A DNA stretch of 29,035 nt. Source: a virus (Duplodnaviria; Heunggongvirae; Uroviricota; Caudoviricetes). Positions 3,674 to 15,777 of this stretch are shown in pieces (the stretch's first letter is position 1; the number at the start of each line of letters is the position of its first letter). Below the pieces are notes generated by a model. That model was not told where the DNA came from and searched no databases. It saw only the letters and a program-made list of their open reading frames with translations. A program made the position numbers and the translations under genes. The stretch is taken from IMG/VR virus record IMGVR_UViG_2850778813_000007; one strand, 5' to 3'.

Positions 3674-5554
3674 TTATGCGGCTGCTCCAGCTTTGTTTGC
3701 TTTAACTTCCACCGTATCAATAAGTACAGGGTAGGTTTCTGCACTACCTGTAATATCCGTAATGACAAACCTGTTGAGTCCATTAGCAGTATTGGCCCAT
3801 TTCACCAGGTCAAACGCCTGTCCATCCACACCATCAAGCACCGGAGTAACATTAATGCTGTTACTGCCCTTAAATTTAAATGCAAGCGTATGCCAGTCAT
3901 GGTCGAATGCGCCAAACGTGCCAAGTTCTTTTTGTTGATTAACTGTATGATGGTATGCAATATTAATACTGGCTTTATCTGTCTGGACAAAGAAAGAACT
4001 CAGATGGCCTTCACCACCCTCACCCGGCCATTCCGCTATTCGCCAGTACAAACCAAAGGCATACTTGTTTCTGGTTGTCTCAAGATTGACGTTTTCGGGG
4101 ATTTTAAACCGGACAGCAATTTCCCCGCCTTTTTCCAGTAAAAGTTTTGCCTTGTCTGCAGCAATATCACAGTACATTGACCAGGATTTCGCGCTGTTAT
4201 TTTTCTCAATTCGCAGAGCTTTATTGCCGCTGTCATCAACCAGTGTGCGTCTGCCATACATACCGTCCCAGCCATAAGGTTTCAGCTGATTGTCTGTAGC
4301 TTTTTTGGCATCGTAAAAAATTACAGACTCTGAGGTGGTAACCGGCCTGTCTGGAACAACCACCCCGGCAGTACCATTAACAAACGCAGAAGACTTACCC
4401 GCGCAGCTCAGAATCGCCGTTGCCAGACGGTCGGAAATAATCCCACGGCGAGCCCATGAACTGAAATGGCTCGCCCTGTCCTGTGACGTCCAGGTGGCTG
4501 AGCTGTCACGCCATTTCGAACCGTAATAACCGATACCCGGAATGTCCGGGTCTTCTTCCGGTTTGTTCGTCGGCACATTCACCCCGTTCTCATCGGTCAT
4601 GAACGGTACGAAATGGATATTCTTTTCCGTTTTATTTTTATAGCTGCCGTACACCGTCTGGTACGTGGATTCGTTCTTCTGCTTCCAGAAATACGTCGTG
4701 TCCCCGCATATCCAGGGAACACCGCCAGCAGAGCCACCGACGCACTGGCCTGCCATATCCGCCAGGTCTGCACGGAATTTATCAACCAGCGCACCAAACT
4801 GTGCGGCATGATTTGCCGGCGTACCGCCAAAATCAAATTCCCCCTGCATCCACACCACGGCAAACAGCACATTTTTCGGGTTCTTCTCCAGTGCCGCTTT
4901 TGTTCGACCGATAAGGTCCTTATACAGCGGCTTGTCCACACCCCAGCGGGTTGAATTCTCCGAGGCACCACTCGCGTCACTGTATGTGCCATCAGCTCCG
5001 GTGGTGAACGCTGAACCACCACGACAGCACGGAACCAGCAGAATGCCCGCATTCGCCGGTATAAACGGCAGCAGTTTTTTGGCGATATGCAGCCCCTGCC
5101 CCACGGTTCCGTACTGCCCCTTTGACAGGTCCGCTTTCGGATGGTTAAGACGGCTCATGTCCTGCACATCATGCAGACAATGGTCCGCCGGAATGATGTC
5201 GTTATATTTGCATGCTGCACCGCCCGGTGTCACCGTACTGCGACGCGCCAGTTGCTTAATACGCGGGTCCGGACGGTCATATGTCCCCGGCAGCGGAAGG
5301 CCTTCACCATACGACATGCCGTTTGACTGCCCTGCCAGAACCACAACAAAGTAATACTCCGGGTTGCTGGTGGCGCTGATTACTGCACCTTCTGCTGCAA
5401 TCGCCTGCATCAGAGTATAAGGGGTTATGGCCACCGGACTACCAAACGGCTGCCAGCCCTCTTTCAGTTTATGTGTCAGCTTTTCCGCAAGATCTGACGG
5501 CGACGCCGCCCTGACAACATCATAGTGTTTAAATGCCATGGTTCTTTCCACCAT
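3674..5554 (-). CDS. nanS-p: NanS-p-type prophage 9-O-acetyl-sialate esterase (DUF1737 N-terminus plus SASA/SGNH esterase domain)
   Basis: 626-aa ORF; VVVLAGQSNGMSYG motif typical of sialate O-acetylesterases; this family sits immediately downstream of stxAB in Stx phages. Start is ATG 5554 or ATG 5539. Confidence 0.8.
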   Translation of the reverse strand: MVERTMAFKHYDVVRAASPSDLAEKLTHKLKEGWQPFGSPVAITPYTLMQAIAAEGAVISATSNPEYYFVVVLAGQSNGMSYGEGLPLPGTYDRPDPRIKQLARRSTVTPGGAACKYNDIIPADHCLHDVQDMSRLNHPKADLSKGQYGTVGQGLHIAKKLLPFIPANAGILLVPCCRGGSAFTTGADGTYSDASGASENSTRWGVDKPLYKDLIGRTKAALEKNPKNVLFAVVWMQGEFDFGGTPANHAAQFGALVDKFRADLADMAGQCVGGSAGGVPWICGDTTYFWKQKNESTYQTVYGSYKNKTEKNIHFVPFMTDENGVNVPTNKPEEDPDIPGIGYYGSKWRDSSATWTSQDRASHFSSWARRGIISDRLATAILSCAGKSSAFVNGTAGVVVPDRPVTTSESVIFYDAKKATDNQLKPYGWDGMYGRRTLVDDSGNKALRIEKNNSAKSWSMYCDIAADKAKLLLEKGGEIAVRFKIPENVNLETTRNKYAFGLYWRIAEWPGEGGEGHLSSFFVQTDKASINIAYHHTVNQQKELGTFGAFDHDWHTLAFKFKGSNSINVTPVLDGVDGQAFDLVKWANTANGLNRFVITDITGSAETYPVLIDTVEVKANKAGAAA

Positions 5555-5799
5555 CTGAAAAATGATTCTTTAAAATACCTGACATGTAATACAGAAAAAA
5601 CACAAAACCATACCTTAAATAAAAACCTCATCATCAAGCAGATATGCATGGATAAACTACAAGACGAGATATAAACCACCCTGCATTTAAATAAACAATA
5701 AACAACATCAGAAAAATAATTCTGCTCTATGGTTTACATTCAAAAATATCATTTATTCTTTTCAGAACATCACCAGCAATGCATAAACAAGGAAACCAA

Positions 5800-6135
5800 A
5801 TGAAGTGGATTGTGATTGATACAGTTATCCAGCCATCATGCGGAATATCTTTTTCAGTCATATGGAGTAAAATAAAATTAATAATCTGGTATCAATCGGA
5901 TGCTTTCTTACCTCCTGAAAGTATATTTACACTGACTCACACAGGCATCATGCTCAATAACAAAGTGCTACCTGTAACCATTTACAACGTAGTACCATTC
6001 AATAAAACATTCTGGAATTTAATCAAAAACAGCCAGGAATGCCCTACAAATACAGATAACGTATTGAATGAATGCTTTAATAACCGTTGCACTCTGCAAA
6101 TATGTCCTTATGGGCTAAAACAACAAAGTCCATAA
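5800..6135 (+). CDS. Hypothetical 112-aa Cys-rich protein in an AT-rich insert at the stx-equivalent locus
   Basis: ORF track 5779..6135; ATG at 5800 preceded by AAGGAAA with 4-nt spacer; a long ORF in a visibly AT-rich segment is unlikely by chance; opposite strand to the late operon; five Cys residues, four of them in the last 25 residues; no signal peptide. Confidence 0.5.
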
Positions 6136-6154
6136 GGAGTTTACTCACATCTGA

Positions 6155-6189
6155 CAAAATCAATATAAACAGCCCCTCCGGAGAGGGGC
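6155..6189 (-). terminator. Terminator-like hairpin just beyond the 3' end of the AT-rich ORF
   Basis: GCCCCTC-CGGA-GAGGGGC 7-bp stem at 6172..6189; on the minus strand it is followed by a U-rich tract (CUGUUUAUAUUGAUUUU). Confidence 0.4.
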
Positions 6190-6386
6190 TGGAGAGTGGC
6201 GCTATGTGCCATTGCATGGTGCCGGGTGCCTCCCGGTGAATTCAGTACCAGCACCTGAATCTGCGATTATCCCATATACCTACTCGCTGATTGCCCCTCC
6301 GCACAGGGGGATTCACCATGCCAGTTTCTTTTAACAAACTCCCCGCAAACCAGACAACAGTCAACCGCCTGAATTGTGAGACATTT

Positions 6387-6410
6387 AAAAAAAAGCCCGC
6401 AAAAGCGAGC
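6387..6410 (-). terminator. Rho-independent terminator after the tRNA array
   Basis: Minus strand reads GCTCGC-TTTT-GCGGGC followed by eight T residues; 6-bp stem with one G-U wobble. Confidence 0.45.
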
Positions 6411-6425
6411 CAGGGAAAATAAGTG

Positions 6426-6502
6426 TGGCGCGTTCTACTGTATTCGAACCAGTGACCGATTGCTTAGAAGGCAATTGCTCTGTCCGGCTGAGCTAACAAC
6501 GC
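6426..6502 (-). tRNA. argO: tRNA-Arg (anticodon UCU), argO-like
   Basis: Manual fold: acceptor GCGTTGT, D-arm GCTC/GAGC, anticodon loop CTTCTAA, T-loop TTCGAAT, 3' GCCA encoded. One acceptor mismatch and a non-canonical 53-61 pair in my fold. Confidence 0.65.
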
Positions 6503-6518
6503 AGGATACAGATAATGA

Positions 6519-6592
6519 ACCGCCTTCGGGGACCCGAACTCCGCGCAACCAGCTTCGAAGGCTGGCGCTCTTTCCTGATGAGCTAATGGCGG
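6519..6592 (-). tRNA. argN: tRNA-Arg (anticodon UCG), argN-like; possibly imperfect
   Basis: Manual fold: D-arm TAGCTC..GAGC, anticodon stem CCAGC/GCTGG with loop CTTCGAA; acceptor and T stems each carry one mismatch and position 1 is C. Confidence 0.5.
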
Positions 6593-6602
6593 TATGTGAT
6601 AG

Positions 6603-6675
6603 TGGCCCTTGCTGGATTTGAACCAGCGACCTGGCGATTATGAGTCGCTCGCTCTCACCACTGAGCTAAAGGGCC
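6603..6675 (-). tRNA. ileZ: tRNA-Ile2 (anticodon CAU, lysidine type), ileZ/ileX-like
   Basis: Sequence GGCCCTTTAGCTCAGTGGTGAGAGCGAGCGACTCATAATCGCCAGGTCGCTGGTTCAAATCCAGCAAGGGCCA folds canonically and closely matches E. coli ileX; CCA not encoded. Confidence 0.8.
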
Positions 6676-6724
6676 GGGAGCAGAATAATAATGGTGCGTA
6701 ATTAATTCTGCAATCTCATCCGTT

Positions 6725-7774
6725 TCAAACGATTAAATCCTGAACTTCCCTGACTGTCTGCTCAAAACGTCCTGTCTCCAGTTCAACGCCAATCGCACGA
6801 CGCCCGAGCGCCAGTGCCGCTTTTACCGTTGAACCCGACCCCATGAAAAAATCCGCAACCAGATCACCAGGACGACTACTTGCGCTGATTATCTGCTGCA
6901 GCATTTCTGCCGGTTTTTCGCACGGATGTTTCCCGGGATAGAACTGCACCGGTTTATGTGTCCACACATCCGTGTACGGCACCTGCGCCGTCACACCAAA
7001 ATACCGCCGCAGATGTTTATATTCACTCTGCAGCTCCGCATACTGTCGGTTCAGTGAAGTATACGTATCCACCAGCTGGTGGTGGGGCTTTTCCAGTTCC
7101 CCCCGCTGATGCTTCTCTTCTGCCACCCTGGCAAACAGTGCCTGTAATTTCAGATAATCGCTTTCGTTCGGCAACTGCCACTGACTGGCACTGAACCAGT
7201 GCGACACCATGTTTTTCTTTCCTGTGGCATCTGCAATCTGTTTTGCCGTTATCCCCAGGGCCGCGCATGCATCACGAAAGTAAGAAATCAGCGGGGCCAT
7301 CACATGCTGTTTCAGTGCCCTGCCCTTCGCCTCATACCCGGCATCTTTCGGACGATACGGCCCCTGATAATGTTCCGCGAACAGAATGCGCTCTGTGGCG
7401 GGGAAATACGCCCGCAGGCTTTCCTTGTTGCACCCGTTCCAGCGTCCGGAAGGCTTCGCCCAGATAATATGGTTCAGCACACTGAAGCGTTCACGCATCA
7501 TGATTTCGATATCAGATGCCAGGCGATGACCACAGAACAGGTAAAGACTTCCGGCAGGTTTCAGCACCCGCCAGAACTGCGCCAGACACTGGTCCAGCCA
7601 CTTCAGGTAATCATCGTCGCCCTTCCACTGGTTATCCCAGCCCTCAGGCTTCACTTTAAAGTACGGCGGGTCCGTGACTATCAGGTCAACAGAATTTTCG
7701 GGTAACGACCGGATAAATTCCAGGCAGTCGGCGTTGATTAACTCACAACTGGATATTTTTACAGTATTAAGCAT
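6725..7774 (-). CDS. DNA methyltransferase, N6-adenine/N4-cytosine family (beta class: DPPY motif IV before FxGSGS motif I)
   Basis: 349-aa ORF; LIVTDPPY near the N-terminus and DFFMGSGST near the C-terminus; no adjacent restriction endonuclease candidate. Confidence 0.8.
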   Translation of the reverse strand: MLNTVKISSCELINADCLEFIRSLPENSVDLIVTDPPYFKVKPEGWDNQWKGDDDYLKWLDQCLAQFWRVLKPAGSLYLFCGHRLASDIEIMMRERFSVLNHIIWAKPSGRWNGCNKESLRAYFPATERILFAEHYQGPYRPKDAGYEAKGRALKQHVMAPLISYFRDACAALGITAKQIADATGKKNMVSHWFSASQWQLPNESDYLKLQALFARVAEEKHQRGELEKPHHQLVDTYTSLNRQYAELQSEYKHLRRYFGVTAQVPYTDVWTHKPVQFYPGKHPCEKPAEMLQQIISASSRPGDLVADFFMGSGSTVKAALALGRRAIGVELETGRFEQTVREVQDLIV

Positions 7775-8348: not shown

Positions 8349-9170
8349 CTATCGCGTTACCCTCTTTAACTGCCGCTCCGCCCATGCCTCTTCAATGTCA
8401 AACCGAACCACCAACGTATCGTAAAAGCGTTTCACTGATTTTTTCCACGTATCAAGCGTGATAGCACTCGTCACTTTGCATATGGCATTAAATGCCTCCG
8501 TTGATGGTAGTCTTTCACAGCCACGACCACCACAACGCTGGCAGTCTCTGATAACAGGCATACCACGTTTTACCGACTCTTCACGATGAATGGCGACACC
8601 ACGCCCACGGCAATCCTTACAGGCGGTGGAAACCTCACCCTTTCCGCCACACTCCGGACAGGCAACTTTTACCACCTCCCTGACTTTTTTCCATTCTTCC
8701 CAGTAAGACGGATACACGCCTTTTGTGCACTTTGCCCACACTGGTGGCTTACCATCCGGATACTGGATCTTGTTTGTAAAAACCTCGCTTTCAATAAATT
8801 TTTTTCCGTGACAGCAGGGGCACTGTTTTTTGCTCGCCGCGCTACGGGCATAATCTTCAAACGCATACGAAGCCATAATGCGCATCACTACCGGTTTTAT
8901 TTCTGCCGGAAGTTTTCTCAACGCCGCTACACGATCGCACCGACTGAGTGCATAATCTGCCAGTAATTCTGTTGCCCGCGCCCTGTCATTCATACTGATG
9001 CCCATTTTCCCCAGGAACGCAGAAAACCCCATCTCAGCCCGATTCTGTGTCATGCCCTGCGCGGCCATCACATCAGTGATACTCAGCGCATCTTTTGACG
9101 TTGAGGCCGATGCATCGGTCAGGCTAGGGGATTTTGGGGAGTAGTATTTCGGTAAATCTTCCAGTTTCAT
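8349..9170 (-). CDS. Putative late-gene antiterminator Q-like protein with four CxxCxGxG zinc-ribbon repeats
   Basis: 273-aa ORF directly downstream of rusA and upstream of terminators and late genes (the Q position); CPCCHGKK, CPECGGKG, CKDCRGRG, CQRCGGRG repeats. Family assignment is by position and length, not confirmed. Confidence 0.5.
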   Translation of the reverse strand: MKLEDLPKYYSPKSPSLTDASASTSKDALSITDVMAAQGMTQNRAEMGFSAFLGKMGISMNDRARATELLADYALSRCDRVAALRKLPAEIKPVVMRIMASYAFEDYARSAASKKQCPCCHGKKFIESEVFTNKIQYPDGKPPVWAKCTKGVYPSYWEEWKKVREVVKVACPECGGKGEVSTACKDCRGRGVAIHREESVKRGMPVIRDCQRCGGRGCERLPSTEAFNAICKVTSAITLDTWKKSVKRFYDTLVVRFDIEEAWAERQLKRVTR

Positions 9171-15372: not shown

Positions 15373-15535
15373 AGTGACATCCTCATGTGCGAATTTTGAA
15401 AACTCACCACATGGGACGCCAATCACAGAGGTGGTGAGACGTACAGGGTTGGCGTAACCGGTCGCACATGACCCCGGCGCATCTTTCGATGCCCCTGCAC
15501 GCCCCACCATAATTTGGATGTGAGGAAACGTGCGC

Positions 15536-15558
15536 AAAAAAACCGCTGAAGCGCGGTT
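15536..15558 (-). terminator. Rho-independent terminator downstream of the 235-aa regulator gene
   Basis: Minus strand AACCGC-GCTTCA-GCGGTT followed by TTTTT. Confidence 0.4.
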
Positions 15559-15777
15559 ATGCGCATGTGCGAATTTCAGGACGCCAATCCCGGCACCCGC
15601 TTTATAAGGTGCGGAGACAGTGTAACGTCCCGAAATTGCAGAATCAATATTTGGTCTTGAAATGATCATATAGCTGCTGATATCTTTAGAACTGTTCTTG
15701 GATGTTTCGGAGCCGTTTTATGCGAAACAGCTCCCCGTTATTGATGTTGAGTGAGCCGGGTTACTCCCGGCTTTTTT

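Follow-up and report, generated by a model that had tools for sequence, protein, structure and literature searches.

[quoted passage not shown] A 2014 publication already covered the gene and its product, together with the biochemical target and the wide distribution, and the locus is an ordinary one.

Identification of the ORF as iraL

The coding sequence lies on the + strand and comprises 111 aa plus the stop codon. It is preceded by a Shine-Dalgarno sequence (AAGGAA; 5789 to 5794) located 6 nt ahead of the ATG, and its product contains five Cys (residues 14, 81, 92, 97, and 102). The sequence thus bears out the initial annotation, which had described a single ORF on the opposite strand with a good Shine-Dalgarno sequence and five Cys, but not its placement of four Cys in the last 25 residues; three are found there, and four only within the last 31.

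All 111 of 111 residues are identical to IraL of uropathogenic Escherichia coli CFT073 (C_RS06710/c1429, WP_000871291.1), and the window from 5386 to 6391 (1006 bp, including the iraL module delimited below) is 98.5% identical to CFT073. All reported iraL matches are at least 95% identical to the CFT073 gene (PMC4045071). After our own Pfam scan of the product had returned no family at an E value of ≤0.1, the identity of the ORF was settled by NCBIfam and a PDB sequence search. The product matched NCBIfam NF007393 (anti-adapter protein IraM) over residues 1 to 110 of 111, with 162 bits against a cutoff of 121 and an E value of 4.7e-48, and its residues 1 to 78 aligned end to end with the crystallized IraM domain (PDB 8TWD; E value, 9e-32), which places it in the IraM/IraL/RssC family of RssB anti-adaptors. 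Furthermore, precomputed Pfam tables give PF11183 (PmrD) for the protein. An AlphaFold2 model built from a 15-sequence alignment was of low confidence (mean pLDDT of 53, and below 50 in the tail), with the order of strands and helices correct. Annotation pipelines name the gene already, as IraM, and the exact protein carries this name in both RefSeq and UniProt (IRAM_ECO27).

IraL was characterized as the product of c1429, which lies in the potB prophage of CFT073 (Hryckowian et al. 2014, PMC4045071). [quoted passage not shown] IraL acts in unstressed log phase, and its mode of RssB binding differs from that of IraM (PMC4045071). Later studies reported higher iraL levels when fur was mutated in CFT073 (PMC7157518) and after a temperature shift to 37°C (PMC12890032); we found no evidence of direct Fur control of iraL. 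The ORF had initially been regarded as a cargo gene of unknown function, a reading against which homology to a common characterized phage gene was expected to speak. Such homology is what we found, the product being identical to the characterized anti-adaptor IraL (PMC4045071).

Organization of the late region and extent of the iraL module

Gene calls and Pfam assignments place the late operon of the lambdoid prophage on the - strand throughout, and they confirm the order that had been read from the sequence, i.e., Q, methyltransferase, tRNAs, slot, nanS-p, and lysis genes. On this strand lie the Q antiterminator (8349 to 9170; PF03589), an N6/N4 DNA methylase (6725 to 7774), and a cluster of three tRNAs (6426 to 6675) with a CAT anticodon (ileZ-type), Arg-TCG, and Arg-TCT; the CAT-anticodon tRNA is called Met by ARAGORN and tRNA-Ile by RefSeq in homologous prophages. 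The last tRNA, argO, is followed by an intrinsic terminator (6394 to 6411, - strand) with a 7-bp stem and then eight T, and in 933W the corresponding site, which precedes the stx genes, bears the annotation of a possible rho-independent terminator. On its left, the slot is bordered by a nanS-p-type sialate O-acetylesterase (3674 to 5539, - strand; Pfam DUF1737, SASA, and DUF6645), whose start is most probably at 5539 and not at 5554, following the 933W and RefSeq homologues. Past nanS-p, the - strand encodes a DUF826 protein, a class II holin, a DUF1327 protein, a lysozyme, and Rz.

By windowed calculation, the G+C content is 0.326 at 5555 to 6165, compared with 0.495 for the whole window; it is 0.294 in the part preceding the ORF and 0.348 within the ORF. 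The value is 0.525 at 6166 to 6420 and 0.51 to 0.53 in the flanking genes. The AT-rich slot of the initial annotation can therefore be retained for 5541 to 6170, but not for 6171 to 6420, which is backbone of 52% G+C common to other lambdoid phages. Indeed, three phages without iraL and stx (phi296, PhiR5_1, and Nil3) show homology from 6171 rightwards, and the two whose records include nanS-p (phi296 and PhiR5_1) also show homology leftwards from 5540. Since backbone homology ends at 5540 and restarts at 6171, the iraL module is defined as 5541 to 6170 (+ strand), an AT-rich block (33% G+C) that sets this prophage apart from lambdoid backbones without iraL.

These limits also bear on whether 5800 to 6135 might be a chance frame, or residual stx-flanking DNA from which no product is made. 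The segment from 6171 to 6420 does flank stx in Stx phages, and the small ORFs at 6206 to 6334 and 6291 to 6422 appear spurious, as such an explanation would have it. The block from 5541 to 6170, however, has no counterpart in 933W by alignment, is conserved at an identity of at least 90% in 1446 genomes, and encodes a protein whose identical counterpart has been characterized experimentally. Judged from these comparisons, the chance of a residual or fortuitous ORF at 5800 to 6135 is negligible, and this explanation can be considered already refuted. The two small ORFs were rejected as genes; both overlap the STnc100 gene described below, and the one at 6206 to 6334 is an incomplete fragment according to RefSeq.

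STnc100 and the two hairpins

An STnc100-family small RNA (sRNA) gene (Rfam RF02076) occupies 6161 to 6350 on the - strand; it scored 126.9 bits (gathering score, 47), and the full model (1 to 206) was covered. iraL and STnc100 are convergent, with their 3' ends 26 nt apart. In Rfam scans, a member of this family was found at the equivalent position in 933W, phage 75/02, phi296, PhiR5_1, and Stx2_EH2201. The window gene overlaps, by family, EcOnc27/sRNA103 of Stx2 phages, an Hfq-binding sRNA encoded directly downstream of stx2B (PMC4104026, PMC12711010). Expression and Hfq binding have been reported for the STnc100 copies of Stx2 phages (PMC4104026, PMC12711010, PMC12370729), and the published STnc_100 qPCR primers (PMC12370729) match exactly at 6229 to 6248 and at the reverse complement of 6300 to 6319.

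According to Rfam, two hairpins first listed as features in their own right are both parts of this single late-strand gene. Hairpin 1 (6170 to 6191, - strand) is the predicted stem of the STnc100 Rho-independent terminator and is followed by UUUAUAUUGA on the - strand. It has 9 bp and a folding energy of -19 to -20 kcal/mol, with a z score of about -4 and none of 200 shuffled sequences as stable. Hairpin 2 (6294 to 6310, - strand) is an internal STnc100 stem-loop, CCCCU/AGGGG, which is paired in the Rfam consensus structure. Thus, hairpin 1 stands as a hairpin on its own stability, whereas hairpin 2 taken alone is within chance (z score, -1.2; 17 of 200 shuffles). The 8-mer common to both hairpins had been thought worth pointing out; it occurs twice, and at least two matches were also obtained in 15 of 100 shuffles, which is not beyond chance.

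The stx junction and the occupants of the iraL site

No stx-like ORF had been recognized in the slot, in agreement with our comparison with phage 933W, relative to which the window is without exactly stx2AB. The tRNA/terminator block of 933W aligns to 6388 to 6800, the 933W DNA just downstream of stxB2 aligns to 6293 to 6383 and to 6213 to 6243, and the first 109 bp of 933W nanS-p align to 5432 to 5540. Between the first two of these segments 933W carries Stx2AB (933W locus, 4463 to 5703). Since the 933W blocks meet at 6383/6388, this junction is the position of stx2AB, and the equivalent of the stxAB insertion point (6384 to 6387, with no strand assigned) is empty here. The iraL module lies about 215 bp from the junction, on the opposite side of STnc100. 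Alignment with the late region of Stx phages, to which the initial annotation had looked for the replacement breakpoints, therefore sets the stx breakpoint at 6383/6388, and alignment with the iraL-less, stx-less backbones sets those of iraL at 5540/6171.

The stx-converting phages (933W, H-19B type) have the same backbone, consisting of Q, methylase, ileZ-argN-argO, terminator, STnc100, nanS-p, and lysis genes, but their toxin genes are on the late strand, whereas iraL is on the opposite strand. It had been proposed that the cargo is carried instead of stxAB. This wording is imprecise because the two cargo sites are independent: the stx junction is separate and empty in the window, and both sites are filled in the two phages inspected, in which a paralogue of iraL lies beside stx2AB.

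When the iraL module was combined with either stx2AB or stx1AB into chimeric queries, the two were adjacent in none of the 5426 genomes. The mutual exclusion of iraL and stx suggested by this result was overturned by a diverged paralogue in Stx2 phages, which was found by tblastn and is invisible to megablast. With tblastn, this IraM-family paralogue was found in 41 phage records, most of which bear the names of Stx2c, Stx2, or Stx2a converting phages; it has 107 aa and shares 73.6% identity with IraL and 65% with K-12 IraM. In phage 2851 and Stx2_EH2201, the only two inspected, it lies between STnc100 and nanS-p and opposite to stx2AB, i.e., in the same sub-slot as iraL and likewise convergent with STnc100, and in Stx2_EH2201 it is annotated as iraM. 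The window from 5300 to 6383 aligns with the paralogue module at 69% at the nucleotide level. The paralogue is a distinct allele, and these two phages also carry stx2AB upstream. In the literature searched, we found no experiments on the Stx-phage paralogue and nothing relevant on iraM together with Stx.

Rfam scans showed that the place equivalent to that of iraL is occupied by AsxR in 933W and by AgvB in Shigella phage 75/02. At this place in phi296 and PhiR5_1, no Rfam family scored above threshold, and AsxR/AgvB (RF02703, RF02702) had no match in the window at the gathering threshold. AsxR and AgvB were described by Tree et al. (2014, PMC4104026) as members of convergent pairs of sRNAs at the moron site of lambdoid phages. 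Like iraL, they are partners convergent with STnc100/EcOnc27 just upstream of nanS-p, and like iraL, they are prophage elements that retune global regulators of the host. However, they are Hfq-dependent RNAs of 51 to 60 nt, whereas iraL encodes a protein. As far as alignments and family scans indicate, iraL replaces the AsxR/AgvB anti-sRNA segment relative to 933W and phage 75/02. It may be that the STnc100-convergent sub-slot is a dedicated cassette site for interchangeable hijackers of host regulators, the candidate contents of which may be IraL, the Stx-phage IraM paralogue, AsxR, and AgvB.

Distribution and context of iraL

The 630-bp module (5541 to 6170) was found at an identity of at least 90% in 1446 of 5426 complete E. 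coli genomes, with 1 to 3 copies in each, and the exact protein is recorded in 34,862 blocks of an assembly collection. In all 10 of 10 diverse contigs, Q, in some cases with a methylase, precedes an oppositely oriented iraL, which is followed by nanS-p or a DUF1737 remnant (by neither in locus L019) and then by holin; the gene output for these contigs lists no tRNAs among the called genes. Overall, we examined the neighborhood of 12 other copies, and in all 12 iraL is placed between a Q/tRNA side and a side with nanS-p or its remnant (L019 having neither). The same context was seen in CFT073, in strain 300444, and in phage vB_EcoS-640R1. Furthermore, GenBank contains four E. coli phages from the UK with iraL, in which it is annotated as an anti-adapter protein.

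In CFT073, iraL occupies the same place, on the opposite strand between the Ile/Arg/Arg tRNAs and the nanS-p/DUF1737 gene. The two loci differ in that nanS-p is full length in the window but truncated to a DUF1737 remnant in CFT073, and in that CFT073 has about 500 bp extra between STnc100 and the tRNAs, including a DUF3927 ORF. The view of the ORF as a separately acquired cargo gene in the conversion area of the late region is therefore supported, with the addition that the gene is conserved in related prophages. The block can also be regarded as a moron, a cargo gene that is probably transcribed independently.

Promoter, transcription start, and expression of this copy

The transcription start site of iraL has been mapped in CFT073 by 5' RACE (PMC4045071). 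The published sequence, ACATCACCAGCAAGGCATAAACAAGGAAACCA, corresponds to 5767 to 5798 of the window with one mismatch (G to T at 5780), which places the transcription start and 5' untranslated region at 5767 to 5799 on the + strand. Upstream of it, we infer a sigma-70 promoter (5733 to 5759, + strand) with a -35 hexamer TTTACA (5733 to 5738), a 15-bp spacer, and a -10 hexamer TATTCT (5754 to 5759), the last of which sits 7 nt upstream of the mapped start. A consensus promoter scan missed this promoter because of the 15-bp spacer.

Two substitutions distinguish the promoter and leader of this copy from those of CFT073. The A-to-T change at 5757, by which the -10 hexamer reads TATTCT instead of TATACT, is private to the window copy, as TATACT was present in 13 of the 13 other copies compared. 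The G-to-T change at 5780 (+14) is common only to locus L019 among the copies compared, and it gives rise to a spurious in-frame ATG at 5779, which is included in the mechanical ORF list. Since this ATG follows the transcription start by 12 nt and lacks a Shine-Dalgarno sequence, the start codon is placed at 5800. A megablast search with a 73-nt promoter query was tried for counting the -10 alleles and was abandoned in favor of the direct comparison of 13 copies; it gave no match and was uninformative because the substitutions at 5757 and 5780 leave no exact word of 28 bases. Low-complexity masking may also have added to this null result.

Given the change from TATACT to TATTCT, expression of this copy may be weaker than that in CFT073. 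A stronger version is that iraL is intact yet effectively silent here, owing to the A-to-T change in the -10 hexamer and probably also to H-NS acting on an AT-rich promoter. Consistent with silencing are the TATTCT hexamer, which stands against TATACT in all 13 other copies, the G+C content of only 29% in the promoter region, and the fact that expression of a second iraL copy with a point mutation in its -35 hexamer was questioned previously (PMC4045071). On the other hand, A2 and T6, the most critical positions of the -10 hexamer, are retained, and the coding sequence is intact and specifies a product identical to functional IraL. We therefore consider silence of this copy unlikely.

Relation to K-12 IraM and the Cys-rich tail

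IraL and K-12 IraM (b1160) belong to the same family and probably have the same fold, with 62% identity overall and 67% over the crystallized residues 1 to 78, and all five Cys of IraL are kept in K-12 IraM. This relationship, together with the NCBI name IraM, raises the question of whether IraL is simply the functional equivalent of K-12 IraM, induced through PhoP/PhoQ under Mg2+ starvation. In its favor, the best PhoP-box-like match of the window, TGTTTATTGTTTATTTA, with one mismatch, lies at 5688 to 5704, upstream of the transcription start. This site was rejected as regulatory evidence, as 33 of 100 shuffled sequences matched as well or better, which is within chance. Besides, nucleotide alignment with the K-12 iraM locus is restricted to coding sequence (71%; 5797 to 6119), and the promoter and flanks are unrelated. 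The genomic locations also differ: K-12 iraM adjoins the e14 element, whereas the IraL copy is in the late-region slot. Moreover, K-12 IraM is PhoP dependent and stress induced and touches both domains of RssB, whereas IraL works in log phase and, by two-hybrid analysis, binds only the N-terminal domain. The window copy has neither the identity of at least 95% nor the homologous PhoP-controlled promoter expected of a K-12-type IraM. Equivalence to K-12 IraM is therefore very improbable.

The residues of IraM contacting RssB were taken from PMC10844676 (structure 8TWD) and aligned with IraL. Five of the five residues in cluster I, which contacts the N-terminal receiver domain of RssB, are identical in IraL. 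The corresponding figures are three of five, plus two conservative changes, for cluster II (contacts to the C-terminal domain of RssB), and two of four for cluster III (contacts to the linker). [quoted passage not shown]

The C-terminal tail has been described as flexible and less conserved, and it was removed for crystallography. Across the 11 family members that we aligned, with identities as low as 54%, C81, C92, C97, C102, and ICPYG are invariant, as is the tail motif C-x10-C-x4-C-x4-CPYG as a whole, while the residues between the Cys vary freely and C14 is variable. On the basis of this conservation, the Cys tail could act as a sensor of metal or redox state through which the stability of the anti-adaptor is controlled. 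Both this suggestion and that of a dedicated cassette site convergent with STnc100 are speculative, and we consider them unlikely.

Proposed mechanism and implications

RssB binding and sigma-S stabilization have been shown elsewhere for the identical protein (PMC4045071). With the identity, anatomy, context, and prevalence observed for the window copy, the following mechanism may be proposed. IraL would be a small cytoplasmic protein with a PmrD-like beta-barrel which, as is known from the identical protein, binds the response-regulator-type adaptor RssB, so that sigma-S (RpoS) is not delivered to ClpXP; sigma-S levels would consequently rise in growing lysogens. Transcription of iraL would begin at 5767 from a sigma-70 promoter of its own and run against the Q-dependent late operon. 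Because of its own promoter and opposite direction, its expression in the lysogen would be independent of pR'. Two late-strand terminators, one after argO (6411 to 6394) and the other that of STnc100 (6191 to 6170), are predicted to insulate iraL as long as Q does not act, in that transcription of the tRNAs and of STnc100 would end short of iraL and not run into it in antisense. Once the prophage is induced, polymerase modified by Q would pass these terminators and collide with iraL transcription. For the source strain, we infer both the expression of iraL and its insulation by terminators.

What is gained is a map of the slot, in which stx and iraL have separate insertion points, one on each side of STnc100. 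Such a map can help in annotation and in considering the ways in which RpoS is retuned by prophages, although it will not surprise the specialist. If the sub-slot is indeed a cassette site for hijackers of host regulators, then Q-driven antisense transcription through iraL on induction would end sigma-S stabilization and thereby tie it to lysogeny.

The iraL Promoter Region

Compared with CFT073, the iraL copy in the window carries two substitutions, at 5757 and 5780. The former is an A-to-T change in the -10 hexamer, as we infer its position, and was found in none of the 13 other copies. The latter is a G-to-T change at +14 that is common only to one other iraL-carrying locus (L019) among the copies compared, and it yields a spurious upstream ATG. 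Besides, a PhoP-box-like site with one mismatch, TGTTTATTGTTTATTTA (window 5688 to 5704, minus strand), precedes the transcription start of iraL by 63 to 79 bp; although the best match in the whole window, it is not significant, because 33 of 100 shuffles gave equally good matches.

C-Terminal Cysteine Motif of IraL and a Third IraM-Family Paralogue

The motif C-x10-C-x4-C-x4-CPYG, within IraL residues 81 to 111 (window 6041 to 6132), was invariant across 11 members of the family, the most distant of which had 54% identity, and the positions separating its cysteines were variable across the same proteins. In the structural study of IraM, the C-terminal tail was taken off as unstable and flexible (PMC10844676). 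As for the domain assignment, our local Pfam-A scan of IraL (window 5800 to 6135) gave no match at an E value of 0.1 or better, whereas the protein collection gives PF11183 (PmrD) for the identical sequence in its precomputed tables; this mismatch is probably due to version or threshold differences.

Furthermore, we identified a third paralogue in the IraM family, 107 aa long and sharing 73.6% identity with IraL and 65% with K-12 IraM, in phage 2851 (L020, 4501 to 4830) and Stx2_EH2201 (L021, 4501 to 4824), where it is flanked by stx2B/STnc100 on one side and nanS-p on the other. The same paralogue is encoded by 41 phage records, mostly named Stx2c, Stx2, or Stx2a converting phages, and is without annotation in most of the records listed. 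No experimental work on this Stx phage paralogue was found in the literature searched.

Small RNA Genes

Within the prophage's early region, Rfam detected a C4 antisense RNA (window 15427 to 15514; 75 bits) and the Hfq-binding RNA isrK (15536 to 15612; 62 bits) side by side on the minus strand. Their pairing is of the P1/P7 immunity RNA type, which is known from certain lambdoid and Gifsy-like prophages.

At window 6161 to 6350, the minus strand carries an STnc100/EcOnc27-type sRNA gene over its full length. Two small ORFs on the plus strand (6206 to 6334, 42 aa; 6291 to 6422, 43 aa) overlap it, the former being labeled an incomplete hypothetical protein by RefSeq in related genomes, and both are probably annotation artifacts. 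The iraL-carrying phage vB_EcoS-640R1 has two diverged STnc100 genes in tandem (L001, 6607 to 6795 and 7071 to 7264; 132 and 138 bits, respectively) in the interval from iraL to the tRNA, which suggests that the STnc100 segment is a recombination-prone junction.

In Stx2 phages, the STnc100/EcOnc27 RNA lies directly 3' of stxB, its proposed but unproven target (PMC12370729). The sRNA gene is present in the window, a prophage without stx, and was also found in phi296 and PhiR5_1, which likewise lack stx. Thus, STnc100/EcOnc27 is a backbone feature and not a toxin accessory.
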